A stretch of 29,103 bases of DNA from Candidatus Iainarchaeum sp. (GCA_038736825.1 JAVYME010000011.1:1-29103); one strand, 5' to 3'; counted from the stretch's first letter, positions 1 to 27,199 are shown. A program made the numbers and translations. The notes: a model not told the origin generated them from the sequence alone.

Positions 1-447
1 GCAAAAAAACCAGAAAAAAAGCCTGAAACAAAAACAACCGACTCCTTCAAAAAAATAGCACTGGCACAATGCTGCAATCCACTCCCAGGGGAAAAAATAG
101 TTGGCTACAAGACAACCAAAAGAAAAATCACAATCCATTCAGCAGATTGCCGCTCGCTTGCCATGCTTCCAAAAAACAAAAAAATACAAATGGAATGGGG
201 TTCTGGTGAAAAAAAAGCGCATTCAGTAAAGCTAAAGGTCAGAGCAGTGGAAAGAGCCGGCATACTGATAGACCTTTTAACTGAACTGGAAAAAAAGGAA
301 GCAAAGATTGCATCAACAGAAACAAAAAGCGAAAAAGGCGGCACAATAAAATTCGAATTCAACATAATGCTGAAAGACACTAGGGAATTCCAAGGACTTA
401 AAGAAGCAATTCTTGCAGTGCCGGCTGTTATAGAGGTTAGCCGCTAA
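1..447 (+). CDS. C-terminal part (5' end cut by the window edge) of a RelA/SpoT-homologue-like protein: Cys-rich zinc-finger segment plus ACT/RRM-like domain
   Basis: Frame 1 is open from base 1 to the TAA at 445-447. The listed 163..447 ORF is only the part from an internal Met. The translation ...IALAQCCNPLPGEKIVGYKTTKRKITIHSADC... fits the CCxPxPGDxIVG...H..DC motif of long RSH enzymes. It is followed by an ACT-like segment (VKLKVRAVERAGILIDLL...IKFEFNIMLKD...L...I..VP.V..V.R). Confidence 0.55.
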   Translation, partial: AKKPEKKPETKTTDSFKKIALAQCCNPLPGEKIVGYKTTKRKITIHSADCRSLAMLPKNKKIQMEWGSGEKKAHSVKLKVRAVERAGILIDLLTELEKKEAKIASTETKSEKGGTIKFEFNIMLKDTREFQGLKEAILAVPAVIEVSR

Positions 448-576
448 AAACAAATAAAAACAACACTAACTATCAAATTTAAACCAATTGAATTAATCAC
501 TCTTCAAACCAAAAGCTCAACTGATTGAAAGGATTAGAAAAAAAAGGCAAAAATTAAACCACCCATTATTTTGGGT

Positions 577-1317
577 TTACCCTTCTCCGTACTCTTCCTC
601 TATTCTGCGCACCACAATACCGCGCTGGGTTATTTCCAGTGGATGCAAGTCTTCTGAGTGCTTGGTTCCCCGCATTTTCCTTATATGCAATGTCCTGTTA
701 CTAGTCATTCCAACACCCATGTAATGAAGAACTATTACTCCGTCAACCAAATACTCTTCAACCCCATATTTGCTAAACCTGTTCTTGCCCTCGCCCAGCT
801 CAGATATCAAAATGGATGTAACCCCAGCTTTTTCTAACAGATAACCAAGCTTCAATATAGCCCTTCTTATTTCATGCTCTGTTTTCAAATTATAGCCAAG
901 CGAGGGAATTGAATCTATTACAACACGCTTTGCCCCATACCTTTTTATGGAAGAAAGTATTTCTATCAACAATTTGTCCACATCAAAGCCCGTGCTTGGC
1001 AATGCAAACTCTTCATCGCTTGGAATGCCAATTCTTGCAATTGAACCATCAATTATTTGAATCATGTTTTCTTCTTCAAGCTTTCTCAAATCCCACCCAA
1101 AAGTCAAACAATCCTCTCTTATCAGAGAAGGCCTTTCATCAAGCGTTACATAAATTCCAGGCTCACCATATTTTTCTGCACCAGCATAAATATATTGGAC
1201 TCCGAAAGTTGTCTTGCCGGTGCCACAACCGCCACTCACAAGGATAGCGCGGCCTTCTGGAAAACCACCTTCAAGCAATTCATCAAGCCCAATTATTCCA
1301 GTGCGAACTCTCTCCAT
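577..1317 (-). CDS. KaiC/RadA-like RecA-superfamily ATPase, single domain
   Basis: 246-aa ORF. N-terminus RVRTGIIGLDELLEGGFPEGRAILVSGGCGTGKTTFGVQYIY carries a Walker A motif in the typical KaiC-family context. A Walker B-like VVIDSI follows. Confidence 0.8.
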   Translation of the reverse strand: MERVRTGIIGLDELLEGGFPEGRAILVSGGCGTGKTTFGVQYIYAGAEKYGEPGIYVTLDERPSLIREDCLTFGWDLRKLEEENMIQIIDGSIARIGIPSDEEFALPSTGFDVDKLLIEILSSIKRYGAKRVVIDSIPSLGYNLKTEHEIRRAILKLGYLLEKAGVTSILISELGEGKNRFSKYGVEEYLVDGVIVLHYMGVGMTSNRTLHIRKMRGTKHSEDLHPLEITQRGIVVRRIEEEYGEG

Positions 1318-1421
1318 AAAACCACCACTATGTTATAGTGTTTATTTGTTAATATACTTTTTGCTGTGATTGAAAAGTTTAGAAGACAGCAAGAAAATCG
1401 TTCAGAAATAAAAAAAAATAG

Positions 1422-1495
1422 TGGGGCGGGCGAGATTTGGACTCGCGACACATAGGTCTTCAGCCTACTGCTCTACCGGGCTGAGCTACCGCCCC
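1422..1495 (-). tRNA. tRNA-Phe (anticodon GAA)
   Basis: The reverse complement GGGGCGGTAGCTCAGCCCGGTAGAGCAGTAGGCTGAAGACCTATGTGTCGCGAGTCCAAATCTCGCCCGCCCCA folds as a cloverleaf. The 7-bp acceptor stem GGGGCGG/CCGCCCC is perfect, the anticodon loop is CTGAAGA, and no CCA is encoded. Confidence 0.9.
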
Positions 1496-1560
1496 AGCCA
1501 TAATAAAAATTATTGGTTAATTAATTTAACCCTATTGAACCACAATTAAAAGCCAGCCAG

Positions 1561-1634
1561 TGAGCCCGGCGGGATTTGAACCCGCGACACCTGGATTAAA
1601 AGTCCAGTGCTCTGCCAGGCTGAGCTACGGGCCC
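1561..1634 (-). tRNA. tRNA-Lys (anticodon UUU)
   Basis: The reverse complement GGGCCCGTAGCTCAGCCTGGCAGAGCACTGGACTTTTAATCCAGGTGTCGCGGGTTCAAATCCCGCCGGGCTCA has anticodon stem CTGGA/TCCAG, loop CTTTTAA and T-loop TTCAAAT. Confidence 0.9.
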
Positions 1635-1770
1635 TAAAAAGCACTACTTGTACAAAGTAGGATAAATAATAGTTTTCTGTCAAGATATTTAAAGGAATGC
1701 TTCATTAAATACCAGAACTCCAATAATCAGCACAAAAAAACGCCTTTAATTTGCTGACAAAACAAGAAAC

Positions 1771-3039
1771 CTAAATAACTTTTATTCCGCCCATTAACGG
1801 TTGCAACACTTTTGGCACTTCAACAGAGCCGTCTTCTTTCTGGAAATTCTCCAAAATAGCCCTTATAATGCGAGAAGTGGCCAATGCTGTGCTATTAAGC
1901 GTGTGCACAAATTCCTTGCCTTTGTCTTTCCTGTAACGGATTTTAAGCCTTGCTGCTTGATAGGAGGTGCAATTCGAACAAGAGATTATTTCGAAATACT
2001 TGCCCTCGCGTGGAGACCACGCCTCAATATCATACTTTTTTGCTGCAACAGTGCCAATATCGCCAGTGCAAACATTCATTACCCTGTATGGAATGCCTAA
2101 CGCTTGAATAATCTCTTCAGCATTCCCCAATAACTCTTCATGCATCTTCCAAGAGTCCTCTGGCTTGCAGAAAACAAATTGCTCAACCTTTGAAAACTGG
2201 TGAACGCGGAAAAGGCCGCGCTCATCAATAGAGTGCTTGCCTATTTCCTTCCTGAAACAAGGGGAAACACCGCAATATTTTAGTGGCAAATCTTTAGCCT
2301 CAAGGATTTCATCCATGTGAAGAGCAGCAATTGGATGCTCGGAAGTGGCAATAAGAAAAAGATCCTCGCCATCTATTTTATACATAACATTTTCGAAGTC
2401 TGCAAGGTCAGTAACCCCCTCATAGGGCTTCCTGCGGAGCATGAAAGGCGGAACTACAACAGTATACCCGCGACGATTAAGAAAATCCACAGCAAAACCC
2501 TGCAAGGCAAAATCCAGCAAAGCCAGGCTGCCCTTAAGATAATAAAAACCAGCGCCTGCAACATTCACTGCCTTAGAAAAATTCGCAAGACCACGTGACT
2601 GGGCAAGCTCGCCATGATGCTTTAACGCAAAAGCGGGCTTTTTTGGCTCCCCCCAGCGCCGCACCTCCACATTTTCATTCTCATCCAAGCCATCAGGCAC
2701 AGATTCATGCAAAAGATTAGGAAGCCTTGCAAGAAGAAAATCAACCCTTTGGCGGCACAAAGCGGCTTCAGCCTGCACCTTCTTAACCTTTTCAGGCAAA
2801 AGCCTTGCCTTTGCAAGAACCGCACTAGCATCCTTGCCCTGCCTTTTCAAGAGATTAACTTCATCAGAAAGGCGATTGCGTTCACATCGCAACCGTTCCT
2901 CCTCAGCCTTAAGCTCACGCCAGCACCTATCCTTTTCCACTAATTCATCAAACATTTCAAGAAAAGACTGATTACCGCGCCTGGCCAGATTTTTTCGCAC
3001 TTCAAGAGTGTGAGTTCTCACAAAGGAAAGCTCAAGCAT
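1771..3039 (-). CDS. serS: seryl-tRNA synthetase
   Basis: The ORF 1771..3093 has an N-terminal coiled-coil arm (MLELSFVRTHTLEVRKNL...) and a class II core (FRVHQFSKVEQF, GDIGTVAAKKYDIEAW, NSTALATSRIIRAILEN). I place the start at Met19 (3039) because SerRS normally begins ML..K.IR. The 18 residues upstream are hydrophobic and look like junk. Confidence 0.9.
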   Translation of the reverse strand: MLELSFVRTHTLEVRKNLARRGNQSFLEMFDELVEKDRCWRELKAEEERLRCERNRLSDEVNLLKRQGKDASAVLAKARLLPEKVKKVQAEAALCRQRVDFLLARLPNLLHESVPDGLDENENVEVRRWGEPKKPAFALKHHGELAQSRGLANFSKAVNVAGAGFYYLKGSLALLDFALQGFAVDFLNRRGYTVVVPPFMLRRKPYEGVTDLADFENVMYKIDGEDLFLIATSEHPIAALHMDEILEAKDLPLKYCGVSPCFRKEIGKHSIDERGLFRVHQFSKVEQFVFCKPEDSWKMHEELLGNAEEIIQALGIPYRVMNVCTGDIGTVAAKKYDIEAWSPREGKYFEIISCSNCTSYQAARLKIRYRKDKGKEFVHTLNSTALATSRIIRAILENFQKEDGSVEVPKVLQPLMGGIKVI

Positions 3040-3108
3040 AAAAGCACCAGAAAAAATTATGCAAAAAGTCGTTAAATAACTATCACCCCACACTTAATTG
3101 GACAGGAT

Positions 3109-3633
3109 ATGCCGACAAAAGAAAAAAACATTACTGTCTTAAGATACGGTCATCGGCCATACCGCGATCTACGGGTTACAACCCATTGCTGCCTTGTAGC
3201 AAGGGCATTTGGTGCAGAAAAAATTTTAATACAAGGCGATGAAGACGCCTCCTTGAAAAAAACAATTGACTCAATAACAAAAAACTGGGGCGGAACTTTC
3301 CAAGTTGAATTCTGCGAAGGATGGCTCGAACAGATTAAAAAATTCAAAAGAGAAGGATATTATATTGTGCACTTAACCATGTATGGGAAGCCACTTAACA
3401 GGGAAATAACAAAAATACGAAGAAAAAAAAGGCTTTTAGTGATAATAGGCTCAAAAAAGGTTGAAATCGGAGTTTACCGGCAAAGCGACATAAATATATC
3501 AGTTGGAAAACAACCACATAGCGAAATTGCTGCTTTGGCAGTGTTTCTTGACCGATTATTTGACGGAAAAGAGCTCGAAAAAAAATTTCCCGGCGCAAAA
3601 ATCATCCTTACCGCAAAAAATGAAAAAAAATAA
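3109..3633 (+). CDS. trm56: tRNA (cytidine56-2'-O)-methyltransferase aTrm56 (SPOUT family)
   Basis: 174 aa. The segments VLRYGHRPYRDLRVTTHCCLVARAFGAEKI, WGGTFQVEF, VHLTMYG and GKQPHSEIAALAVFLDRL are collinear with archaeal aTrm56 proteins as I recall them. Confidence 0.85.
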   Translation: MPTKEKNITVLRYGHRPYRDLRVTTHCCLVARAFGAEKILIQGDEDASLKKTIDSITKNWGGTFQVEFCEGWLEQIKKFKREGYYIVHLTMYGKPLNREITKIRRKKRLLVIIGSKKVEIGVYRQSDINISVGKQPHSEIAALAVFLDRLFDGKELEKKFPGAKIILTAKNEKK

Positions 3634-3679
3634 TATTGTTTAAATTAGTTTGCCAAGATAAATATCGTGGGGGGAGCCA

Positions 3680-4225
3680 ATGAAAAAAACAAAGTCAAAG
3701 AAAAAACTAACATCATTCCAAATAGTTAACGAATTCCTCTCCCAAGTTGGAGGAGAAGGCGCCATACAACTCGTGACTCTTTATGAAAAAGGACTTTCCC
3801 CAATAAAAGATGAAGAAGCAGCAAACAAAATGAAAGTAAAAGTAACAGATGTGAGAGCAATTCTAAACAGACTGCACTATAGGGGAGTAGCAAACTACCA
3901 AAAGAAAAGAAACAAAAAAACAGGATGGTACTCATACACTTGGACAATTGACAAAAAAAGAATCCTTGAATTGCTTGTTGAAAAACAAAAGGAAGAAATA
4001 GAAAAAATGGAACAAAGAAAAGAACACGAAGAGACATACTCGTTTTTTTCTTGCAAAAAAAACTGCCATGAACTCCCATTTGAAATAGCTGCAGAATACC
4101 AATTCCGCTGCCCAGATTGCGGCAGCGAGCTCAATTGCATAGATGGAAAAAAGAGGACCCAAGAAGCAGCAGAAAAAATAGAACAAATGAAAAAGGAAAT
4201 TTGGGAATTACAAAAAATAATTTAA
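3680..4225 (+). CDS. tfe: transcription factor E (TFIIE-alpha homologue)
   Basis: 181 aa with an N-terminal winged helix (VTDVRAILNRLHYRGVANYQK..WYSYTWTIDKK) and a C-terminal zinc ribbon (FFSCKKNCHELPF...FRCPDCGSEL). A GGGGGGAG Shine-Dalgarno lies upstream of the ATG. Confidence 0.8.
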   Translation: MKKTKSKKKLTSFQIVNEFLSQVGGEGAIQLVTLYEKGLSPIKDEEAANKMKVKVTDVRAILNRLHYRGVANYQKKRNKKTGWYSYTWTIDKKRILELLVEKQKEEIEKMEQRKEHEETYSFFSCKKNCHELPFEIAAEYQFRCPDCGSELNCIDGKKRTQEAAEKIEQMKKEIWELQKII

Positions 4226-6711: not shown

Positions 6712-7578
6712 TCATGCTTTTTGCTTTAATGTGTCTAGCGGGCTTTTCACTTTCTTCAGTTCTTCTGTTGAAATCGTTGTGTATATTTGCGTTGTAGACA
6801 GGCTTGAGTGACCAAGGAGTTCTTGTATTTTCCGGATGTTCTCGCCTGATTCCAACAAGTGTGTGGCAAAACTGTGCCTGAACGAGTGGGGTGTTATGTT
6901 TTTTTGTATTTTTGCTTTTTTTCTGCATTTGCGCACTATTCTTTGGACAGTGTCTGCGCTAATGGGTTGTCCGTTTTTTTTGCAGAATACGAATTCGCTT
7001 TTGTTTTTTCTGTTTTCCAAGAATTTTTTGAATTCGTTTATCCATTCTTCTGAAAGTATCACCATTCTGTCCTTGTTGCCTTTGCCGCCTCTCACCACGG
7101 CTGTTTTTTCGTTTAGGTCTAGATTGGTGATTTTTAGATTTGTTGCCTCGCTGACTCTGAGGCCGCTAGAGTAAAGCAGTTTTAGTAATAGCCTGCTTTG
7201 GGGGGTTTTTGCAGCGTTTATTATGGCGTAAACTTCTTCTTTGGTCATTACTGCTGGCAGTTTTTTTGCTTTTTTTGGTCTCTTGATGTCGTCCATTATT
7301 TTTTGTTTGAGGTGGGAGTGAAAGAAGAATTTGAGTGCAGCGTAAATGAGCGCCAGCGTGGTTCCCTTGGCGTTTTCAGAGCTTTTTTTTGCCAAGAATG
7401 CAATGATGTCTTCTCTTGAAGTGCTTTCTGGGGGCTTGTTTGAAAAATCCAAAAACTCTTCTACATAATAACGGTACATTTCAATAGTTCTCTTAGAGTA
7501 CCCTGCTACAGACAATTCATTCTCAAATTTTGCCAAAACTGCTTCTTTTTTGTCTTTTAGAGCTGTTTCCTGGCCCAT
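6712..7578 (-). CDS. xerA: tyrosine recombinase, XerA/XerC-like
   Basis: 288 aa with an N-terminal SAM-like core-binding domain (LSVAGYSKRTIEMYRYYVEEFLDF). The catalytic domain shows GLRVSEATNL, GKGNKDRMV, TPHSFRHSFATHLLESG and LLGHSSLSTTQIYT, giving the R..H.R..H/Y signature. Confidence 0.88.
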   Translation of the reverse strand: MGQETALKDKKEAVLAKFENELSVAGYSKRTIEMYRYYVEEFLDFSNKPPESTSREDIIAFLAKKSSENAKGTTLALIYAALKFFFHSHLKQKIMDDIKRPKKAKKLPAVMTKEEVYAIINAAKTPQSRLLLKLLYSSGLRVSEATNLKITNLDLNEKTAVVRGGKGNKDRMVILSEEWINEFKKFLENRKNKSEFVFCKKNGQPISADTVQRIVRKCRKKAKIQKNITPHSFRHSFATHLLESGENIRKIQELLGHSSLSTTQIYTTISTEELKKVKSPLDTLKQKA

Positions 7579-10934: not shown

Positions 10935-12656
10935 TTATTGTGAATAGCAGTTTGTTCTAAAAACCGAGCCATCAATGTATCGGCCGTCGCCTTGCTGGAA
11001 TTTGCACCCGTTAACCACTGTTCCACAATGATCACATTGTCCAACGTATTCTCCTGGGATTGCTGGCACTATTTCTCCATTGTATGTTGTTTGGATCATG
11101 GCTGGGGCTGGTATTCCCCACTTGGATATTATTTGTTGTTCCCATGCTTGTTTGCATGTTGTAAAATCCATGCAAATGCAGGGCAATACTGCCATGCAAG
11201 AGTTTGGAGTGGTTATAAGTACACAGTTTGTTATTTGTGGTTGAACTCCTTGGCAGTTGGGCTTTGGCTGGGCTGGTGTCTGGGTTGTTGTTATGCAGTT
11301 TGTTCCACTGCAATTTCCAACTGTTGGGAGTTCGCAACAGTTTTGCTGAGTTAGTATTGTACCCCCGCAACGGTCGCATATTTCGACTGGTATGGATTTC
11401 ATTGTTCCTTGCACGTATAGTGCTGTTTTGCCGTTGTAGGTTCCTTGCTGGAAGTTTTTTGGTCCAACTGATGCTGTCCATGCGTCAATGCATTTTTGAA
11501 TGCTTGCTCCTTGTTCGCATTCGCATGGCAGCCAGATCCTGCAATTTTGCAGGTCGCTGGCGCAGGGTTGCAAGGTGCATTTTGTTTCTGGTGTCGGCGT
11601 TTTCACTGGCGTGGGCAATGGCTGGCATTCGCCTTCGCAATTCATTGTTTTTGTGTCACACCATGCCGGTATTGTGTTTGTTTCATACCTGAGCACTATT
11701 TCTTGTGTTTCGTCGTTTCTGCTTTCCACTTCGATTTTTTCTTCTAGTCCGAGTTCGAGTCTTTTTCTCCAGTGGTTTTCACAGGCTAAAATGCTTTTGC
11801 ACTTGCATGGCAATAAGTAAACGCATTTTTGTTTTTCCTGCACTGGCAGGTTTTCTTCTATGCATTCTCTTGTTTCCACTTTGCCGAATGCATTGAATTC
11901 CAGTGTTTTGGTTCTATAGTTTGTTTCGTCTGTTTTTTCCACGGCGGTTATTTCTGCTTCGTATTTTCCGTTTTCGCTTATTTCAATTTCCAGTTCTCCG
12001 CTTTTTTTTTCTCCGGTTTCAAGTGGGAATTCTGTTGAGAATTCTTTCACGAATTTTTTTTCAACTGTGCCGTCGCTTCGCTCGAGTTTTCTGAAAACCT
12101 TTGCTTTTACTTGCATTGAAACAATGTCTTTTTTTCCAGTGTTTTCCACTTCAAAGGGGATTTTTAGCTTGCTTGTTTCTGCAAGGTTCAATTCTTTGGT
12201 TGAGAGCTCGAGCTGGTTTATTTGGATTTGCGCTGGCTCTGAACCCAAGTATACTTTGCAAATGTAAAGGTTTTCATAACGGCATCTGGCTGAAAAAGGC
12301 ACTGTTTTTTCTTGGTTGAAGGAAAAATACCTTCTTGTGCCAGTATTGTCCCATTCTATTGTTTTGCTGCAATCTTTGCCTTGTTCGCAGCAAAAAAGGG
12401 AATTATTGCAATTGAACACTACTGCGCGGTCTGGGCTTTCAAATCCTGTTGCGTGAACTGTGTGGCCTGCTTTGAAGGTGCCTTCTTGGGTTGAATAAAC
12501 GCCGAGTTGCTCTTCAGCTCTGTCCAGGTTTTTTTTGACAACCTCTATTGGGTTTTCTTTCCAAAGATAGTTTGGTCCAAAATGGAAAAGGAATAAATAG
12601 AGCAATGCTGCTGCCAGAATGCCGTAAACTGCAAGCTTGAAAGTGCTTTGTTCCAT
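10935..12656 (-). CDS. membrane-anchored, Cys-rich extracellular repeat protein (novel architecture)
   Basis: 573 aa with an N-terminal signal anchor (FKLAVYGILAAALLYLFLFHF). A Cys-free beta-sandwich-like segment spans about residues 150-260. Three roughly 85-aa Cys-rich modules follow, sharing C-x3-LPC-x-C...C-x3-W...TYNG...CD-x-CG. Pro/Thr linkers separate the modules. Confidence 0.8.
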   Translation of the reverse strand: MEQSTFKLAVYGILAAALLYLFLFHFGPNYLWKENPIEVVKKNLDRAEEQLGVYSTQEGTFKAGHTVHATGFESPDRAVVFNCNNSLFCCEQGKDCSKTIEWDNTGTRRYFSFNQEKTVPFSARCRYENLYICKVYLGSEPAQIQINQLELSTKELNLAETSKLKIPFEVENTGKKDIVSMQVKAKVFRKLERSDGTVEKKFVKEFSTEFPLETGEKKSGELEIEISENGKYEAEITAVEKTDETNYRTKTLEFNAFGKVETRECIEENLPVQEKQKCVYLLPCKCKSILACENHWRKRLELGLEEKIEVESRNDETQEIVLRYETNTIPAWCDTKTMNCEGECQPLPTPVKTPTPETKCTLQPCASDLQNCRIWLPCECEQGASIQKCIDAWTASVGPKNFQQGTYNGKTALYVQGTMKSIPVEICDRCGGTILTQQNCCELPTVGNCSGTNCITTTQTPAQPKPNCQGVQPQITNCVLITTPNSCMAVLPCICMDFTTCKQAWEQQIISKWGIPAPAMIQTTYNGEIVPAIPGEYVGQCDHCGTVVNGCKFQQGDGRYIDGSVFRTNCYSQ

Positions 12657-14576: not shown

Positions 14577-15335
14577 TTAAAATTGGACGCCTGTGTGCTC
14601 TGAAATTATTCCAAGGATTTCCTCTTGCTTTATTGGCCTTATGCCTTTTGTTGTCGCTATTTTCCACTGCATTTCCTTTGAAAAACCCCAAGTGCTGATG
14701 TAAACCTTTACTCCAAGCCTTTTTACGTCTATTGCGTTGTAAAGAGTGTCCTCAAAGAAAACCATTCTCGGAAAAGGGGTTTTTGCTTTTTGGGCTAGCA
14801 ATGAGAACTGCCGGTCCTTTTCATGTGATACTGTTTTGTCTATTATTTTTTCTTGCTCTAACCATATGCCCTGGCTTTCCAAAAACAAAAGGATTGATTC
14901 GGCATCCCTTGTGCTCACAATCCAAGTGTCTATCTGTTCCATTGCCTTTCCAAATGCATCTATCACCTTTGCGTGCGGTTTCATGGTGTTAAGCCAGGCA
15001 TCCCTGTCTTCCCTTAAAACCGCTTTTCTCTTATAGTATTCGGCTTCAAGGGCAAGCACTTTTGCCTCTCCCATTTTTTGCTTTAACTTGTTTATCTGCC
15101 ATCTTCCCATTTTTGTTGTGTCCTCTCCTTGCGCTATCAAGCCAATGATTGGCATTACGTCCTTTCCAGTCCTTATAAGGTGAGTGGAATTCGCAAATTT
15201 TTCAAAAAAGAATTCAGGCGCATAATCCGTGTTGTTCATTTCATTAAAGGTTTTTGTTGCAGCTTGCACGACTTCTTCAAGCGGGTTGACGAGCACGCCG
15301 TCAAAATCAAACACTGTTAACCAATTGCATTCCAT
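14577..15335 (-). CDS. HAD-superfamily hydrolase-like protein, substrate unknown
   Basis: 252 aa with HAD motif I FDFDGVL at residues 9-15, a Ser/Thr motif II candidate IVSTRD and an acidic motif FFEDT near the C-terminus. An AGGAG Shine-Dalgarno lies 9 nt upstream of the ATG. The gene is embedded between the fni and ipk genes. Confidence 0.6.
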   Translation of the reverse strand: MECNWLTVFDFDGVLVNPLEEVVQAATKTFNEMNNTDYAPEFFFEKFANSTHLIRTGKDVMPIIGLIAQGEDTTKMGRWQINKLKQKMGEAKVLALEAEYYKRKAVLREDRDAWLNTMKPHAKVIDAFGKAMEQIDTWIVSTRDAESILLFLESQGIWLEQEKIIDKTVSHEKDRQFSLLAQKAKTPFPRMVFFEDTLYNAIDVKRLGVKVYISTWGFSKEMQWKIATTKGIRPIKQEEILGIISEHTGVQF

Positions 15336-15359: not shown

Positions 15360-15800
15360 CTATGCATTCTTTTTAACCATCATTTGATAAAGCAAGGGCG
15401 ACTGGGTTGAGTACACAGTGTAAGGCATTGTTTTTTGGCTTATCAGTCCAGCCTTTTTCATTGCCTCGTGATAGAATTCCGGAGGCGTGTGCCCTTCATA
15501 AAATTTTATTTCCGCTTGTTTTTTTCCCTCTTCTAGGGGTGCTTTTTCAAGTTTTTCCAAGTATTTTGCAAGGTTTATTGGTTCGCCTTTTTTTGCAGCC
15601 CTGTCAAACCAGGACAGGAATCTTTCTTTTTCTGTTGGAGGATAATTGAGCAAGCCAATCCATGTTGAAAGCATTTCCCTTGTTGCAGCCAGTTCTGTTG
15701 GAGTCCAACCACCAGAAACCCCTTTTTTTCCTTTCAACCCCTTTTGCTGGAAAACAACAGGCATCAGTTTTTTTCGCGTGTTTTTCGGTTTTGCAGGCAA
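15360..15800 (-). CDS. hypothetical protein (146 aa) within the mevalonate cluster
   Basis: A TTG start at 15800 lies 4 nt after an AAGGTGA whose TGA is the stop codon of the upstream ipk gene. The protein has normal composition and a basic N-terminus. I recognise no motif. Confidence 0.5.
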   Translation of the reverse strand: MPAKPKNTRKKLMPVVFQQKGLKGKKGVSGGWTPTELAATREMLSTWIGLLNYPPTEKERFLSWFDRAAKKGEPINLAKYLEKLEKAPLEEGKKQAEIKFYEGHTPPEFYHEAMKKAGLISQKTMPYTVYSTQSPLLYQMMVKKNA

Positions 15801-16996: not shown

Positions 16997-18169
16997 TTAT
17001 TTTAGGGCTTCTTGCACGCATTCCTCCAGCGTGCGAATCCTTGTTTTGATTCCGTTGTGGCCGCCAGCATAATAGCATGCTTTTGCTGAATCTGTTACCA
17101 TTCCCTTAAATCGTCCCTTTATGGGTGCGACAGCCATGCAAGTGTCGCATGCAATTTTTGCGCCTGCTTCCTCTATTGCCTTTGTGTAACCCATTTTGTC
17201 AGCCAACTGCTTTGTCTGCCTTGCAGTGCAAATCCAGAACTCTTTTTTCACTTTTTTTCCGTTTAACAGTTCGGCTGTTTTTTGGATTTCGTTGATTGAA
17301 GCGTGAGGACAGCCTATTCCTATAAAGTCTATTTCCTCTGCAACATCAAATTTTGCCAGTGCTTCACTGAGTTCTTTTTCAGTAATTGTCATTTTTTTCT
17401 TTGGAATTATTGTTTTTGAAGGGGTTATTCCTTTCACGTGAAACATTGCGGTTCCCCCATATGTTGCTATTGCAGCGCAAAGGCTTTTCAGTTCTTCAAT
17501 TGAAGCACTGTTTATTCCTTCAATTAAGGGGATTTTGTTTCCGATTTTTTCCCCAATGATTCTGCCAAGCGCTCCAAATTTTGGCAGAGTGTCTATTTTT
17601 GCTTTTACGATTACGCGCACTTGGGCTTGCCTGTTTTTTTCCAAGTGCATTCCGTATTCTGGTGTTTTGCCGGTTAGAGCTGAAGCAATGGAGCTTGGGC
17701 CTCCTTCCCTGTTGGTTTTCGCGCCAATCACTGAGTTTGCAAAGCATACTGCGCTTGATTCGCTCCAAGCAATGTTTTCGCCAAACCTTGGCAGGTTGCC
17801 AATCAAATAGGGAGTGCAAGTGCACGTAACAGTTACCCCCATTTTTTTGAATGCTTCAATCACTTTCATTTGTTTTTCAGCAAAGCCTGTTTCTATTCCG
17901 AGTTTTTGCCATTCCTCTAAATCCATTCCCGCTGGATTGAGTGTTGTGAGCACTTTCACTTTTCCGTCGCGGCCCATTTCTTCCAAGAATTCGAGGCCTG
18001 CGTCGCCAAGGTTGTGATAGCTTACGCCTGCAATTTGAACGCTTTTCACGTCTATGAGCCTTTTTGCGCCATAAATTTTTCCCAGTGCTATAAGGATTTC
18101 CATGCTTTTCTTTACAGCGCTTCCCTGTTTTCCTGAAAGCATTTCTTTTTCTTGAAGAGTGAGTTTCAT
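16997..18169 (-). CDS. aconitase-X large (catalytic, DUF521-type) subunit; phosphomevalonate dehydratase large subunit
   Basis: MKLTLQEKEMLSGKQGSAVKKSMEILIALGKIYGAKRLIDVKSVQIAG... is the typical DUF521 N-terminus. I place the start at ATG 18169, preceded by GGAGGG, rather than at the ORF-track start 18211. Confidence 0.88.
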   Translation of the reverse strand: MKLTLQEKEMLSGKQGSAVKKSMEILIALGKIYGAKRLIDVKSVQIAGVSYHNLGDAGLEFLEEMGRDGKVKVLTTLNPAGMDLEEWQKLGIETGFAEKQMKVIEAFKKMGVTVTCTCTPYLIGNLPRFGENIAWSESSAVCFANSVIGAKTNREGGPSSIASALTGKTPEYGMHLEKNRQAQVRVIVKAKIDTLPKFGALGRIIGEKIGNKIPLIEGINSASIEELKSLCAAIATYGGTAMFHVKGITPSKTIIPKKKMTITEKELSEALAKFDVAEEIDFIGIGCPHASINEIQKTAELLNGKKVKKEFWICTARQTKQLADKMGYTKAIEEAGAKIACDTCMAVAPIKGRFKGMVTDSAKACYYAGGHNGIKTRIRTLEECVQEALK

Positions 18170-18170
18170 T

Positions 18171-18836
18171 TCAAGCCCTCCTTCTAGCAAATTTTTTTGT
18201 TGTGCCAGCAATCCTGTAGAGATCCCTGTGGATTTTGGAAGAATGGCCTTGCCTGATGATTTTTGGGTTTTTTCTTTTTCCTAGAAAGCTTGGTGCTTTT
18301 TCCATTGCTCCGTATGCATCAAACCTTATGTGTGGCGGCAGCCAGTTTTCTTTTTTTGCTTGTTCTAGGGCGCTTTTGGATAACAGGCAGCCTGTTTTTG
18401 GTTTGCCGCCCAACAACCTTAGTGCAGTGCAAATGTTGGCAATGTTTTCTCCGGTGTGCACAAATTCTTCCAGTACAAACACTTCTGGTTTTACTTTCAA
18501 GATGTCTGCGAGTTTTTTTCTGTTTTTTGCTATTTCTTCAGCCAGTTCTTCGGTTTTTTTTTCATTTTTTTCCTTGAATGCTTCTTCTTGCGAAAAATCT
18601 CTGGCTCTAGTGGGCATTCTTCCAAGCGAAAAAATGTTTGGCGGTTTTTCTGTTGGAAATTTTTGCCGCCATAAAAGCATGAAAAGTTTTATGGCTGGCC
18701 TGGCGCTTGTGCCTCCTGCCACGACTGTTGGAATTTTTTGTGCGTGGACAAATTCAATCATTGCTTCAACTGATTCCCTGAATTGTTTTGCTTCTTGCGG
18801 GTTGAAGAATTCAAGGCTGTTTTGTGCAATCTCCAA
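18171..18836 (-). CDS. uncharacterised protein with a degenerate phosphoribosyltransferase-like motif
   Basis: 221 aa. PTVVAGGTSARPAIKLF and PEVFVLEEFVHTGENIANICTALRLLG resemble the type I PRTase core and PRPP loop (hydrophobic4-acidic2-x-x-x-T-G), but they deviate from the consensus. A charged insert (EEAFKEKNEKKTEELAEEIAKNRKK) is present. The TTG start lies 4 nt after a GGGGTGA that contains the UbiD stop. Confidence 0.4.
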   Translation of the reverse strand: MEIAQNSLEFFNPQEAKQFRESVEAMIEFVHAQKIPTVVAGGTSARPAIKLFMLLWRQKFPTEKPPNIFSLGRMPTRARDFSQEEAFKEKNEKKTEELAEEIAKNRKKLADILKVKPEVFVLEEFVHTGENIANICTALRLLGGKPKTGCLLSKSALEQAKKENWLPPHIRFDAYGAMEKAPSFLGKRKNPKIIRQGHSSKIHRDLYRIAGTTKKFARRRA

Positions 18837-18840
18837 GGAT

Positions 18841-20142
18841 TCACCCCAAAAATTTTTTCAAGTCTGTTTTAGGGTATTTGACTTTTTCAAAGTCTTTTTT
18901 GTCCCTGTTTGCCGGAATTGTCAAGTCAAAGCCTGCCTTGCAAGTGTTTCTAGTGCTTTGGTCTGCGCTTGGATCCAGTGAAGAGCCTTTTTGTCCAGGG
19001 TATAAATGCAATTGTTTGTCTGCTTGAAACCTTGTGCTCATAGCCCATTCAATCTCGTTCGAGTTCAAAATATTGATGTCTGAGTCCACTACAAATGCAT
19101 GTTTTAGGGATGAGTGCCCTTTAAATGCTGCTTCTATTACTTTTTTTGGCTCGTCATCGCTTTTTTTGTCTATTTTGATTGCTGCATGCAGCCAAGAGCA
19201 GCCCCCATAGGTTACGTTCACATCCAATACTTTTGCTACCTTGCTTGTTTCCCTGAAAATTGTTGGTTCGCGCGGCATTCCCATTAAAACCCTGTGTTCT
19301 CCGCCTGCTGGCAGCAATGCGTGCCAGATTGCGTTTTTTTTGTGTGTTATTTTTTTGACAGTGAGCACTGGCTGTTCTCTTACAAAATCGTAAGTGCCGG
19401 TCAAGTCCAAAAAAGGGCCTTCTTTTTCCAGTTGGTTCATGCTCAGCGTTCCTTCCAATACAAATTCTGCTTCTGTTGGAACCGGCAAATCCGCTGTTTT
19501 TGCCCTCACTGTTTCGAATGGTTCAAGGGAATTAGCTATTTTTTGTTCTGATTCTCCAAGCGCTGGGCTTGTGGCTGCCGCCAGCAATATGTTTGCCGGC
19601 AATCCAATGCAGACAGCAACATCTATTTCGCCATTGTTTCTTTTCATGAATTCCATTGTGTGCCTTTCCAGAACCCTTACAGAAAACCTTGTTTTGTCCA
19701 ATTGCATGCAGCGATGGAATGCCATGTTCACTCCCAGTTCTTTGTCTCTGGCAATGAACACTCCTGAAGTGATGAAATTGCCTCCGTCTATTTCTGTGTA
19801 TTTGGTGATTGGCAGAGAGTCTAAATCCACTTTTTCCTCTATCACTTGCTGGCATGCTCCCTTGCTGGCTTCTTTTGGCTCGGATGGTTTTTCCAGTGCT
19901 TGAATCATTTTTGGAACAAGCTCTTCTGGTTTTATGCCAAAATATTCTGCCACTAGTTCTTTTGATGAAAAAGCGTTTCCCAAAACCTTGAACTTGGATT
20001 CCTTTATTTTTTCAAACAATACTGGTGTTCCATCCAATTCTTTCATTATTGCAGAGCACTCGTATTTTTTTGAAACCGGTTTTTTGATTCTTGCAAGTTT
20101 TCCTTTTTTTTCCATTTTTTCAATGAATGCTTCAAGGTTCAT
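18841..20142 (-). CDS. UbiD-family (prFMN-dependent) decarboxylase; by context, anhydromevalonate phosphate decarboxylase
   Basis: 433 aa with UbiD-like layout and length (LFEKIKES.., GGNFITSGVFIA.D.., MAFHR, GGCSWLHAAIKI). A GAGGTGG Shine-Dalgarno lies upstream. The ORF overlaps the ubiX stop by 11 nt. Confidence 0.8.
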   Translation of the reverse strand: MNLEAFIEKMEKKGKLARIKKPVSKKYECSAIMKELDGTPVLFEKIKESKFKVLGNAFSSKELVAEYFGIKPEELVPKMIQALEKPSEPKEASKGACQQVIEEKVDLDSLPITKYTEIDGGNFITSGVFIARDKELGVNMAFHRCMQLDKTRFSVRVLERHTMEFMKRNNGEIDVAVCIGLPANILLAAATSPALGESEQKIANSLEPFETVRAKTADLPVPTEAEFVLEGTLSMNQLEKEGPFLDLTGTYDFVREQPVLTVKKITHKKNAIWHALLPAGGEHRVLMGMPREPTIFRETSKVAKVLDVNVTYGGCSWLHAAIKIDKKSDDEPKKVIEAAFKGHSSLKHAFVVDSDINILNSNEIEWAMSTRFQADKQLHLYPGQKGSSLDPSADQSTRNTCKAGFDLTIPANRDKKDFEKVKYPKTDLKKFLG

Positions 20143-20692
20143 CTTTCCACCTCTTGTAAAGCGAGTTTTTTATTCCAAACAAGTCCATTATTTTTCCAGC
20201 CATAAACAATTCCAAGTCTTTTATTGTTTTTGGTTTTTGATAGAATGCCGGGCTTAATGGCATCACGATTCCGCCATAAAGTGCGATTTCTTGCAGGTTT
20301 TTCAGTGTTGGTGCACTCAAAGGGGTTTCTCTCACGCACACCACTATTTTTCTTTTTGTGCGAAGCATTATGTCCGCGCACCTGCTAATGAGGGTGCCTG
20401 TGTGTGCTGTTGCTATTTCTGAAACTGTTTTAACGCTTGCCGGCAAAACTATCATTCCTTCGCATAAAAAGCTTGAGCTTGCAATCCTTGCATTCATTTC
20501 GTTTTCACTATAACAGTAGTCTGCCATTTTTTCAAGTTCTTTTCTGCCAATACTGCATTCTTCTCTTGCCAGTTTTTCAGCCCAATCGCTTAAAACCAAG
20601 TGGGTTTCAATTTTTCTTTTTTTTAATTCTTTTAAAAGTGTTATTGCATAGTTTATGCCGCTTGCACCGCATACTGCCACTATTAGTTTCAT
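20132..20692 (-). CDS. ubiX: flavin prenyltransferase UbiX
   Basis: MKLIVAVCGASGINYAITLLKEL...HLVLSDWA...VLPASVKTVSEIA is the flavoprotein UbiX/Pad1 pattern. The ATG at 20692 lies 1 nt after the mevalonate kinase stop. The ORF-track start at 20701 is a TTG. Confidence 0.88.
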   Translation of the reverse strand: MKLIVAVCGASGINYAITLLKELKKRKIETHLVLSDWAEKLAREECSIGRKELEKMADYCYSENEMNARIASSSFLCEGMIVLPASVKTVSEIATAHTGTLISRCADIMLRTKRKIVVCVRETPLSAPTLKNLQEIALYGGIVMPLSPAFYQKPKTIKDLELFMAGKIMDLFGIKNSLYKRWKDEP

Positions 20693-20693
20693 T

Positions 20694-21620
20694 TCAACCA
20701 ATCCTTGTCCTGAATGCAGTTTTTCCAGTTTTTTCTATTGCTTTTGCCACTTTTTCCTGTAATTCTTTTCCGGGAGTCAGTGCAACCATTAAGCCGCCGC
20801 GCCCTGTGCCTGTGAGTTTTGCCCCTATTGCGCCGTTTTGCCTTGCAATTTCTATGAGTTCTTCCAGTTCCTTGCATGAAACCCCTATTTGTTTTAACAA
20901 TTCCTGGTTTTCGTTCATCAGTTTTCCTATTTTTTCAAGGTTGTTGTTTTGAAATGCCTTGATTGCGTTTTTTTCAATTTTGGCGTATTCTTTGAAGATT
21001 TTTTCAAATTCTTTTGGTTTTTCTTCTTTTGCCTTTTTCACTTCTCCTACAACCTTTGCAGTGTCGCTTGTTATTCCTGTGTTGCCAAGCACTATTTCAA
21101 CTGGTTTTATTTTGATTTTTTTTATTTGAATTCCTTTTTCTTCTTTTTTGAATCTTATCAGCCCGCCGTATACTGCGGCTGTGTTGTCTATTCCGCTTGG
21201 CGTTCCATGATAGCCTTTTTCGCCTTCAAATGCTGCTTCGTTTATTTGTTTGTCGTTCAAGCCCAAACTGAATTCTTCGTTTAATGCTCTTGCTATTGCT
21301 GCGCAGCTTGCAGCGCTTGCTCCAACGCCGCTTGCTGCAATTAGGTCTCCGCCGAGAGTGATTTCAACCGGTGTTTTTTCCGGGTTTATGCCGAGAAACC
21401 TGAAAATCAGTTTTATTGATTCTTCTTGCTGGCTTTCCTTTTGTTTTTTGTAGCCTGGTGTTTCAGGGCGATTGTCTATAATGCGGTACTGGCTGCCTTT
21501 TATGCGTTTTACTTGTGCTGTTGTGCTGCTGGTGATTGCTGAAGCGATTGCCGGCAAACCGTAAACGACAAAGTGTTCTCCGAACAAAATGGTTTTTCCA
21601 AACCCTTTTCCAAAACCCAT
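20694..21620 (-). CDS. mvk: mevalonate kinase (GHMP kinase)
   Basis: 308 aa with KTILFGEHFVVYG at the N-terminus, the GHMP motif GGDLIAASGVGASAASCAAIARAL and a C-terminal KLTGTGRGG. Confidence 0.9.
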   Translation of the reverse strand: MGFGKGFGKTILFGEHFVVYGLPAIASAITSSTTAQVKRIKGSQYRIIDNRPETPGYKKQKESQQEESIKLIFRFLGINPEKTPVEITLGGDLIAASGVGASAASCAAIARALNEEFSLGLNDKQINEAAFEGEKGYHGTPSGIDNTAAVYGGLIRFKKEEKGIQIKKIKIKPVEIVLGNTGITSDTAKVVGEVKKAKEEKPKEFEKIFKEYAKIEKNAIKAFQNNNLEKIGKLMNENQELLKQIGVSCKELEELIEIARQNGAIGAKLTGTGRGGLMVALTPGKELQEKVAKAIEKTGKTAFRTRIG

Positions 21621-25720: not shown

Positions 25721-27199
25721 ATGCCTTATTCAAAAGAAGATTCTGAAATCCTTTTGCGGCATGTCACCAACCTAGACAAAAACGTTTATGCCTTGAAAAA
25801 CCTTCCACCTGAAGTGGTTTCAGTTTTATTCGCTTATGTTTCCCGTTCGCCCGCTTCTTTTAGGGACAACCTTTTAAAACTCCTCAGGGAAGGAGAGCTT
25901 TTGCCAAAAGGCTCTTTTACCGAAGCAACCGATTATTTTGCCTCAGCACAACAAAAAGCCTCTGCCTTTCACGAAAAATGGGTGGTTGGCTTTGGCCACA
26001 ACAGTGTTGCAGAGCACGCTGTCTGCAATCTTGCTTTAGAGAATGTCAGCATTCTGGCTTCAAAAGCCATTGAAGATGTCCGCCTTGCGGCTTTTACAGA
26101 GAAAAGCACTCGCTATCAGTTGTTTGACAGAACAAAGTACTTGAAGCCTGAAAAAATAATGCGTTCAAAGCATGGCGTGGAATACGAGTGCATTATGAAC
26201 TCTCTTTTTGATTTTTATGTTGACAGCACCCCCAAAATGCTGGAATTCATGAAAAAAAAGCACCCAAAACCGGATTCAATGAATGAAAAATTTTATGAAT
26301 CCCTCACCAAATCTCGCGCTTGCGATGTGCTCCGCTATGCTTTGCCTGCAAGCACTCTCACCAACATTGGAATGACTGCAAATGCTCGCTCTCTAGAGCA
26401 CGCAATAATAAAGCTTTCTTCGCATCCCTTGGAGGAAATGCAAAGCCTTGGCGCTCAAATAAAGGAGGAATGTTCAAAAATACTGCCCTCTTTGCTTAAA
26501 GCCGCAAAGAAAAGCGATTACATTGCAAGCACTGAAGAGCGCATGCTGTCTTTCTCCAAAAAATATTCCTTGAAAGCCGAAAACCGCAAAGAAGTGGAAT
26601 TGGTTGTTTCAGACAAAAACCCTGAAGCAAAACTTGTGGCGTCAATAATTTACCGTTACTCCAGTCATTCTTTTGCACAATGCTTAAAGCAAGCTGAAAA
26701 AATGCCAGACAATGAAAAGGAAAAAATAATTGACGAGTTCACTAATGGAATAGGAAAAGAGCAGCCCTTGCGGGAATTCGAGCACCCCTATTTCACTTTT
26801 GACATTTTAGTGGACTTTGGCGCCTTTCGCGACATTCAAAGGCACAGAATGTGCACTCAAACAACCCAATTGCTTTCAACAGACCACGGTTATTCGATTC
26901 CACAGGAAATCATTGAATGCGGTTTGAAAAAGGAATTTGAAAAATGCATGTCTTCCGCCAAAGAATTGTTTGATTCAATGCGCCAAGAAATGCCATTTGA
27001 AGCCCAATACTGTGTCCCATTAGCCTTCAAAAAAAGGGTTTTGTTCACTTGGAATTTGCGCGAATTATGGCATTTCATAAAACTGCGCAGCAGCCGTGCA
27101 GGGCACGAATCCTACAGGAAAATCGCACAACAATGCTATGCTGAATTAAAGGAAAAACACCCGCTTTTGGCAAAATATTTGAGCGTTGATTTGTCCTGA
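25721..27199 (+). CDS. thyX: ThyX-like FAD-dependent thymidylate synthase, long two-domain form
   Basis: 492 aa. The C-terminal half has FRDIQRHRMCTQ (RHR at nt 26840-26848) and NLRELWHFIKLRSSRAGHESYRKIA. The N-terminal half has GHNSVAEHAV...VRLAAFTEKSTRY, which is ThyX-like but lacks RHR. Confidence 0.7.
   Translation: MPYSKEDSEILLRHVTNLDKNVYALKNLPPEVVSVLFAYVSRSPASFRDNLLKLLREGELLPKGSFTEATDYFASAQQKASAFHEKWVVGFGHNSVAEHAVCNLALENVSILASKAIEDVRLAAFTEKSTRYQLFDRTKYLKPEKIMRSKHGVEYECIMNSLFDFYVDSTPKMLEFMKKKHPKPDSMNEKFYESLTKSRACDVLRYALPASTLTNIGMTANARSLEHAIIKLSSHPLEEMQSLGAQIKEECSKILPSLLKAAKKSDYIASTEERMLSFSKKYSLKAENRKEVELVVSDKNPEAKLVASIIYRYSSHSFAQCLKQAEKMPDNEKEKIIDEFTNGIGKEQPLREFEHPYFTFDILVDFGAFRDIQRHRMCTQTTQLLSTDHGYSIPQEIIECGLKKEFEKCMSSAKELFDSMRQEMPFEAQYCVPLAFKKRVLFTWNLRELWHFIKLRSSRAGHESYRKIAQQCYAELKEKHPLLAKYLSVDLS

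Follow-up and report, generated by a model that had tools for sequence, protein, structure and literature searches.

The archaeal mevalonate pathway includes a step that depends on prenylated flavin mononucleotide (prFMN), and to our knowledge it is still unclear how this cofactor and dimethylallyl phosphate (DMAP) are supplied to the pathway. Proteins of the VdcD, LpdD and BsdD type are reportedly small third subunits of UbiD/UbiX decarboxylase systems. The literature that we searched, including a paper on archaeal mevalonate evolution, ties no phosphoribosyltransferase (PRTase) to the archaeal mevalonate pathway. Here we describe a PRTase-like gene that lies inside a mevalonate operon, between the genes for UbiD and for the large subunit of AcnX, in a 29,103-nucleotide (nt) stretch of DNA from Candidatus Iainarchaeum sp. 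(GCA_038736825.1 JAVYME010000011.1:1-29103; "the window" below means this whole stretch). An earlier note on this DNA, made from the sequence alone, had singled the gene out as a PRTase-like orphan and proposed that its product could be an accessory of the pathway, a regulatory subunit or a new enzymatic step.

We hold with high confidence that the product is a PRTase-fold protein and that it is no general component of the pathway. For the fuller picture we would put the chances at roughly one in two: a dispensable, DPANN-specific, purine-PRTase-like protein, co-translated with the operon, whose ligand is 5-phosphoribosyl 1-diphosphate (PRPP) or a nucleotide.

The gene and its fold

The open reading frame (ORF) is a real gene. 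The UbiD gene upstream of it ends TTT TTG GGG TGA (stop at 18843-18841) and, after the spacer ATCC, the ORF begins TTG GAG ATT at 18836; no other in-frame ATG, GTG or TTG can be read between the preceding stop and this TTG. Residues 8-25 of the product can be aligned to homologues in a 33-sequence family alignment, so the TTG start is credible. The 3' end reads AGA AGG AGG GCT TGA A ATG AAA CTC, in which the ORF stop (18173-18171) and the AcnX-large ATG (18169-18167) are 1 nt apart, and AcnX-large relatives match from residue 1 of the latter. These junctions, which had been put forward as evidence that the ORF is translationally coupled on both sides, are exactly as described, and the domains of the two neighbours (Table 1) bear out their identification as UbiD and AcnX.

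Is the protein an orphan? In a word-indexed homology search with the single protein it found only itself, and to that extent the description holds. It fails in an exhaustive HMMER search of 1.84 billion representatives, which returned 37 relatives at E<=1e-3, mostly 190-260 aa long. A word-indexed search with the family profile recovered 12 members, mostly distant, and a metagenome scan with five sequences gave a single 1.2-kb contig (L081). The few members whose source is named all come from metagenome-assembled genomes (MAGs) of DPANN archaea, namely Diapherotrites (the older name for the Iainarchaeum group), Micrarchaeota and Pacearchaeota. Two members carry the source labels "phosphoribosyltransferase" and "hypoxanthine phosphoribosyltransferase", and 18 of the 33 aligned sequences give weak matches to the PRTase family PF00156, the best at 2.3e-6.

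The family profile matches PRTases in the PDB: PRPP synthetase 1u9y at 6.7e-6, the Pyrococcus purine PRTase 1vdm at 4.8e-5, and many hypoxanthine-guanine PRTases (HGPRTs) at 1e-4 to 1e-2. The HGPRT alignments reach from the PRPP loop to the D-F-V-G motif of the hood. When the profile was built from the close subfamily, 1vdm came out on top, followed by HGPRTs. An AlphaFold2 model made with the family alignment (pLDDT 86, pTM 0.84) consists of alternating strands and helices with a helical hairpin at residues 84-115. Compared with the PDB by Foldseek, it shares the PRTase core fold with HGPRTs, 1vdm and PyrR at probabilities of 0.99-1.0 and TM-scores of 0.40-0.58. Together, the sequence profile and the model support a type I PRTase fold that descends from purine PRTases and has diverged strongly. 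The suggestion that the protein is PRTase-like has thus held up, and its predicted alpha/beta fold is not one unrelated to nucleotide-binding proteins.

The family has a recognizable architecture. Its N-terminal half runs from a helix to strand 1, which ends in (V/I)(V/I)-x-G-G-x-S-A-Q-P, and then through a helix with a near-invariant W followed by (Y/F)-P-x-E-x-x-P to strand 2. The C-terminal half opens with a charged insert of variable length, after which come strand 3 with hhhL-(D/E)-(E/D)-x-x-x-(S/T)-G-x-(T/S), the motif L-G-x-K, a segment D-x-x-G...P-x-F...R-R, and a basic C-terminal helix and tail. Counted over the 33 members of the alignment, the best conserved positions are G129 (33), W56 (32), the first acidic residue of the strand 3 motif (31), P66 and G143 (30 each) and G176 (29), followed by T/S131 and A45 (28 each), the second acidic residue (27), S44 and G42 (26 each), S/T128 (25), P47 (23) and F184 (17). 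The residues of the ligand loops are the best conserved columns; what is conserved is the ligand-binding machinery of a PRTase, and what varies is the surface, the insert and the tail.

Both motifs noticed at the outset are present in the window protein. The first, PTVVAGGTSARP (residues 36-47), contains a loop which, from its position in the modelled fold, would be the pyrophosphate (PPi) loop. The second, VFVLEEFVHTGENI, has EE as its acidic pair and fits the PRPP-loop pattern of four hydrophobic residues, two acidic residues and x-x-x-(S/T)-G-x-(T/S); the window copy reads VFVL-EE-FVH-T-G-E-N at residues 119-131, with N in the last place. The charged insert is also there, at about residues 80-116, and the hairpin region within it is the most length-variable and gap-rich part of the family alignment. 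Further on, the D-x-x-G segment followed by P-x-F/Y may correspond to the HGPRT hood, from which the purine gets its aromatic platform. In the HMMER alignments it falls on the HGPRT segments ADFVGF and PDFVG, but the Mg-binding Asp segment that lies downstream in those enzymes has no counterpart. A basic tail of the type LR.EL..IA...RR.R is found in most members, including those outside mevalonate operons.

Taken together, the motifs suggest that the family is a small, fast-evolving derivative of type I PRTases, nearest to the purine or HGPRT kind. It would have kept the acidic pair and the S/T-G-x-T phosphate loop, with which PRTases hold PRPP or a nucleoside 5'-monophosphate, the GG-S-A-Q-P loop after strand 1 and the D-x-x-G...P-x-F(Y) segment like that of the HGPRT hood. 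What it would have lost is the catalytic flexible loop, in whose place there is a helical hairpin, charged and variable.

Table 1. Coordinates in the window of the PRTase-like gene, its predicted parts, its junction elements and its two neighbours
Feature	Position	Strand	Description and basis
PRTase-like coding sequence (P0001)	18171..18836	-	221 aa, TTG start, TGA stop; ORF list, 37 remote homologues, family alignment with conserved motifs, AlphaFold2 model
VVAGGTSARP, residues 38-47	18696..18725	-	Predicted beta-strand 1 and loop like the PPi-binding loop of type I PRTases; model strand 37-40, helix 43-59
Predicted PRPP (5-phosphoribosyl) binding loop VFVLEEFVHTGENI, residues 119-132	18441..18482	-	Canonical spacing; stretch that carries the profile matches to PDB PRTases
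Charged helical hairpin, residues 84-116	18489..18587	-	Where PRTases hold the catalytic flexible loop; model helices 84-105 and 107-115; block-mean pLDDT 75-98 over residues 81-120
C-terminal helices and basic tail (HRDLYRIAGTTKKFARRRA), residues 198-221	18174..18245	-	Model helices 198-210 and 214-220
GGGGTGA	18841..18847	-	Last codons and stop of UbiD, forming a Shine-Dalgarno-like site 4 nt before the TTG start; same GGGGTGA 4 nt before the AcnX ATG in the empty slot of L002
GGAGGG, ribosome-binding site for AcnX-large	18176..18181	-	Encoded inside the PRTase-like gene by its final Arg codons, AGA AGG AGG; same design in L001, L089 and L081
UbiD-family decarboxylase (presumed anhydromevalonate phosphate decarboxylase)	18841..20142	-	Upstream neighbour; PF01977, PF20695, PF20696
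AcnX large subunit (presumed phosphomevalonate dehydratase)	16997..18169	-	Downstream neighbour; true ATG at 18169; PF04412, 514 bits

Presence, position and divergence in mevalonate operons

The operon around the gene is a complete archaeal-type mevalonate operon. All on the minus strand, its genes encode in order HMG-CoA reductase, HMG-CoA synthase, thiolase, a DUF35 partner, MVK, UbiX, UbiD, the PRTase-like protein, the large and small subunits of AcnX, IPK, a 146-aa ORF, a HAD hydrolase and IDI2. All known pathway steps are encoded there. As the earlier note had said, the PRTase-like protein is not among the known pathway enzymes, and it has no homology to any of them. AcnX relatives assign the window to Candidatus Iainarchaeum, a DPANN lineage.

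To see how widely the gene accompanies the pathway, we collected 80 species-representative genome loci around AcnX-large, with up to 6 kb per side, and searched all their ORFs with the family profile. A family member turned up in only one of the 80, locus L001, so that across genomes the gene does not go together with AcnX and UbiD. In most loci AcnX follows UbiD directly, with about 10-20 nt between them. In other DPANN archaea the slot between UbiD and AcnX may be filled by something else: a HAD-like hydrolase (L011, L020, L022, L023, L028, L031, L035, L037, L042), an HD-domain protein (L006, L010, L042), a methyltransferase (L019) or a PAC_bac-like protein (L060).

Close relatives of the window also differ in whether they have the gene. 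By the identity of concatenated AcnX large subunit, AcnX small subunit and IPK, L001 and L002 are 93% alike and the window is 86-87% identical to either; L003 and L089 are 77% identical, and the two groups are about 70-71% identical to each other. The window, L001 and L089 all have the PRTase-like gene at the junction of UbiD with AcnX. It is absent from this position in L002, where the junction reads GGGGTGAAAAAATG, and in L003; both operons are intact, and no remnant of it is visible at the junction. On the contig L081 it has another place: a 667-nt insertion that consists of the ORF alone lies between MVK and UbiX, overlapping the UbiX start by ATGA, whereas in L001 the same junction is gap-free; the flanking DNA is 90% and 83% identical to L001.

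A third position is seen in L082 and L083. There an MVK gene whose product is 73% identical to that of the window is followed by genes for diphosphomevalonate decarboxylase (DMD; TIGR01240, 336 bits) and phosphomevalonate kinase (PMK; TIGR01220, 247 bits). Beyond an AT-rich spacer of 160 nt lies the homologue P0003, and the contig ends 126 nt after it, with no UbiD in view. In L082 (region 323-3917) the decarboxylase and kinase genes are preceded by a 530-nt stretch with stops in all six frames (1250-1778). It may be that this clade has replaced or supplemented its lower mevalonate pathway.

In all, five related genomes hold the gene inside or beside a mevalonate cluster, at three positions and in two pathway types. 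All four AcnX-type operons that carry it have it in direct contact with the UbiX-UbiD pair: it follows UbiD in the window, L001 and L089, and it precedes UbiX in L081. DNA similarity of the window to L001, L002 and L089 ends at the borders of the ORF. Among the five copies linked to mevalonate genes the identity is only 35-44%, against 70-93% for the flanking enzymes, and with identities expressed as log distances the gene has diverged about six times as much as its neighbours.

The gene has thus been lost or gained at least twice in a narrow clade and has changed junction within the operon. Repeated loss or gain, relocation and fast divergence do not fit an obligatory pathway enzyme or a fixed UbiD or AcnX subunit, and in our reading the protein is neither a pathway step nor such a subunit. 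The proposals that it is a general accessory, a regulatory subunit or a new step of the AcnX/UbiD route find no support in that form, given the single occurrence among 80 AcnX loci and the direct junction of UbiD to AcnX in L002. A copy identity so far below that of the putative partners also sits badly with a tight subunit interface.

How can a gene come and go at such junctions? The junction sequences suggest an answer. At the empty site in L002 the UbiD end GGGGTGA is the Shine-Dalgarno (SD) site for AcnX; where the site is occupied, it does the same for the inserted gene. The Arg-rich last codons of the inserted gene in turn give the SD of the next gene: AGAAGGAGG in the window, AGGAGGAGC in L001 and GGAGGGTGA in L089, all for AcnX, and AGGAGA in L081 for UbiX. 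The L001 3' junction runs AGGAGGAGC TTG AAATGA with an ATGA overlap, and that of L081 runs AGGAGA...AAATGA, overlapping the UbiX start. In this one Iainarchaeum clade the gene would be a plug-in cassette, dispensable and seated where genes of the mevalonate operon are translationally coupled; it would borrow the SD-like end of the upstream gene and supply the downstream SD from its own Arg-rich last codons. Since it carries the SD of the next gene, it would be co-translated with the operon without disturbing it.

Two other readings were considered and rejected. The ORF has no terminal direct or inverted repeats beyond chance-level short matches, as a mobile element might have, and its composition (GC 0.417, GC3 0.378) is identical to that of its flanks, which speaks against recent horizontal import. 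An identical 13-nt string, TTGAAATGAAACT (stop, one A, ATG AAA CT), is found on the minus strand at 18163-18175 and 20686-20698, that is, at the junctions of the ORF with AcnX and of MVK with UbiX, so that the two kinds of junction at which different genomes carry the gene resemble each other. The match could be a coincidence in an operon that is coupled and AT-rich, or it could assist relocation by recombination.

More distant members of the family lie in unrelated neighbourhoods. Their neighbours include a pilus-like cluster, the genes pyrD and pyrK, a TFIIB gene, a gene for a metallo-beta-lactamase-fold protein (upstream of the family member) and a cis-prenyltransferase gene (convergent with it), and tandem paralogues occur a few kb from pyr genes. 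The link of homologues to mevalonate or UbiD genes thus holds for the five genomes above and not for these more distant members; the close homologue after MVK-DMD-PMK has a mevalonate cluster beside it but no UbiD in view.

Some observations on individual members may be added. The tandem copies P0011 and P0014 (L094 8001-8624 and 8629-9255), like P0008, are a few kb from pyrD, pyrK, pyrF and a gene for a 316-aa protein; the question of a missing orotate PRTase arose here, and a domain search with the 316-aa protein of the pyr clusters gave no match. P0017 and P0050 are probably two copies in one Diapherotrites MAG (GCA_026397015.1), judging from their close accession numbers. The C-termini of P0002 and P0009 both read CLLYTSPSPRD, which we take to be the translation of a Nextera sequencing adaptor; these C-termini would then be assembly artefacts.

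What the protein may do

The conserved loops suggest that the ligand would be PRPP or a nucleotide-like phosphate, and the protein is most likely either a nucleobase-salvage PRTase or a non-catalytic ligand-binding derivative of one. In either role, what the gene would gain from its seat in a strongly coupled operon is expression.

Several points weigh against this interpretation. Searched alone, the window protein has no relevant match in Pfam, NCBIfam or the PDB and lies below every Pfam and NCBIfam threshold; PF00156 itself gives no match even at E<=10, and so falls short of its gathering threshold. The Foldseek E-values are weak (best 3e-3, PRTases about 6e-3, none <=1e-3), and SIS-domain folds rank beside the PRTases among the top matches by E-value, with lower TM-scores and root-mean-square deviations of 9-10 A. 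In the PRPP loop, N131 stands in place of the conserved T/S, a substitution unique to the window copy among the 33 members. The catalytic Asp of HGPRT lies directly before the T-G of this loop (human D137), and at this position the window protein has H127 and the family H (8), E (6), A, R, K and S (2 each) and others, without conservation. Between strands 2 and 3, where a mobile catalytic loop would be expected, there is no loop with family-conserved residues; the hairpin found there varies in length and sequence. With the Asp position unconserved and the flexible loop missing, genuine transferase activity is doubtful. Finally, residence in mevalonate clusters and constant contact with UbiX-UbiD hint at a functional link, which the interpretation above treats as co-expression only.

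The last point leads to the first alternative, that the protein is an accessory of the UbiX/UbiD prFMN module, its pocket holding flavin mononucleotide (FMN), prFMN or DMAP by means of the phosphate loop and an aromatic platform, and that it acts in cofactor supply or loading. The gene abuts UbiX-UbiD in every AcnX-type operon that carries it and is tightly coupled in translation to these genes. Moreover, the HAD and HD phosphohydrolases that often fill the slot between UbiD and AcnX elsewhere could make DMAP for UbiX, in which case the slot may collect genes that support prFMN. The distribution nevertheless makes this idea, already raised in the earlier note, an unlikely one: 79 of the 80 AcnX/UbiD loci have no family member nearby, the L002 and L003 operons are intact without the gene, one close homologue comes after a classical DMD-PMK cluster where no UbiD can be seen, and other members are far from any UbiX or UbiD gene. 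A copy identity of 35-44% is also hard to square with a conserved partner interface, and we know of no PRTase-fold protein that binds a flavin. A lineage-specific form of the idea is about as improbable, namely that a PRTase-fold protein was recruited in DPANN archaea for the UbiX/UbiD module or, more broadly, for mevalonate flux, with FMN, prFMN, DMAP or isopentenyl diphosphate (IPP) as its ligand in place of nucleotide salvage; such recruitment to the module would explain why the gene relocates yet stays beside UbiX-UbiD.

No more probable is a regulator like PyrR or PurR, which would use its PRTase fold as a sensor of PRPP or a nucleotide and its basic C-terminal tail to bind RNA or DNA, so as to tune translation or transcription of the operon. 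Conserved ligand loops with a lost catalytic loop, and a Lys/Arg-rich C-terminal helix and tail throughout the family, are what such a protein might show. PyrR (1ufr) is among the structural matches at a TM-score of 0.55 on the target, the Pur operon repressor is among the weak profile matches, and fast evolution is common in small regulators. Yet the protein has no recognizable nucleic-acid-binding domain, its basic tail is partly explained by the purine-rich SD that it encodes for the next gene, and the contexts in which family members are found are many and unrelated; nor was a conserved RNA element seen, although none was searched for.

A new enzymatic step is very unlikely. It would act on a phosphorylated isoprenoid intermediate (mevalonate 5-phosphate, isopentenyl phosphate, IPP or dimethylallyl diphosphate [DMAPP]), for example by phosphoribosyl transfer, or would yield a side product, and could account for both the conserved PRPP-type binding loops and the location of the gene, which in five related genomes lies within or next to a mevalonate cluster of one or the other of two pathway types. 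The operon already encodes all the known steps, however, the gene is dispensable in sister genomes and the family has no conserved catalytic loop; nor do we know of any precedent for a PRTase step on an isoprenoid intermediate.

Equally slight are the chances that the ORF is decaying or functionless, or a PRTase effector of defence or toxin systems that has landed in the operon, since its very fast divergence and repeated loss, and the occurrence of PRTase domains in some defence effectors (ShosT is among the weak profile matches), are set against an ORF intact in all five genomes, conserved ligand motifs (G129 in 33 of 33), a confident fold prediction, fully ameliorated composition, biosynthetic neighbours with no partner genes, and the absence of terminal repeats. 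A defence or toxin role had also been screened for with PADLOC, which gave no match for the window protein or its close relatives and a value of 0.024 for one distant member, again with no partner genes.

Neighbouring genes and comparison with known systems

Other genes of the window deserve brief mention. The 146-aa ORF between the IPK and HAD genes (15360-15800, minus strand) is a truncated relative of a 467-aa protein in L002 (3184-4587, plus strand), which has a class I SAM-methyltransferase domain in the middle (PF13847, PF08242). The window copy retains a short N-terminus and the C-terminal 120 aa (76% identity to the L002 protein) and looks like the result of an in-frame loss of the methyltransferase domain; a homologue also precedes MVK in L031. 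The HAD-family hydrolase gene (14577-15335, minus strand) recurs in DPANN mevalonate operons, after IPK in the window clade and in the slot between UbiD and AcnX in many other lineages. One may speculate that it is a DMAPP-to-DMAP phosphatase feeding UbiX. Outside the operon, a ThyX-like ORF (25721-27199, plus strand) of 492 aa is roughly double the usual length, with two stretches that match Thy1, so that it may be a tandem-duplicated or fused flavin-dependent thymidylate synthase. A 573-aa ORF (10935-12656, minus strand) has no Pfam match, and a tyrosine recombinase of the XerC/D-like phage-integrase family (6712-7578, minus strand) lies upstream of the operon region.

If the PRTase-like protein is the dispensable nucleotide or PRPP binder that we favor, the family is an uncharacterized PRTase branch, so far found in DPANN only, that current domain libraries have missed. 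A single gene could then enter or leave coupled junctions with coupling kept, because it carries the ribosome-binding site of the next gene in its own last codons, and tight operon embedding in compact DPANN genomes would be no proof of pathway membership. Should the protein instead serve prFMN, the archaeal mevalonate pathway would have a previously unknown helper at its prFMN-dependent step. The HAD and HD phosphohydrolases that recur in the slot between UbiD and AcnX of other DPANN may be a more general lead on the supply of DMAP and prFMN.

With the archaeal mevalonate enzymes (MVK, AcnX, UbiD with UbiX, IPK and IDI2) the protein shares an operon and translational coupling but no homology, and unlike them it is missing from all but one of the AcnX loci surveyed and from sister genomes. 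It is like the VdcD, LpdD and BsdD proteins in being the product of an extra small gene beside UbiX-UbiD; its fold and size are unrelated to theirs, and its co-occurrence with UbiD is limited to one clade. In PyrR and PurR the PRTase fold serves, wholly or in part, as a ligand sensor. Both 1ufr and the Pur repressor are among the matches, and the window family also has a basic surface or tail. Unlike PurR, it has no winged helix-turn-helix domain, and the window shows no link to a pyr or pur operon, though two distant members are near pyrD, pyrK and pyrF.

The closest resemblance is to HGPRT (HPRT) and the Pyrococcus horikoshii enzyme 1vdm, both of PF00156, which are the best PRTase matches by profile and by Foldseek. 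The alpha/beta core is of the same type, the PRPP loop has the same spacing, a G-rich loop follows strand 1 in both, the size of about 200 aa is similar, and D-x-x-G...P-x-aromatic aligns to the hood motif D-F/Y-V-G-F-x-x-P-x-x-F. The window family differs from these enzymes in having a charged hairpin for the flexible loop and a variable residue (H in the window) at the position of the catalytic Asp, in falling below the Pfam threshold, and in its own signature W56-x3-(Y/F)-P-x-E-x2-P, its basic C-terminal tail, its far faster evolution and its mevalonate-operon setting. Within a known superfamily, it is thus a new and very divergent form, and its genomic setting is unusual.

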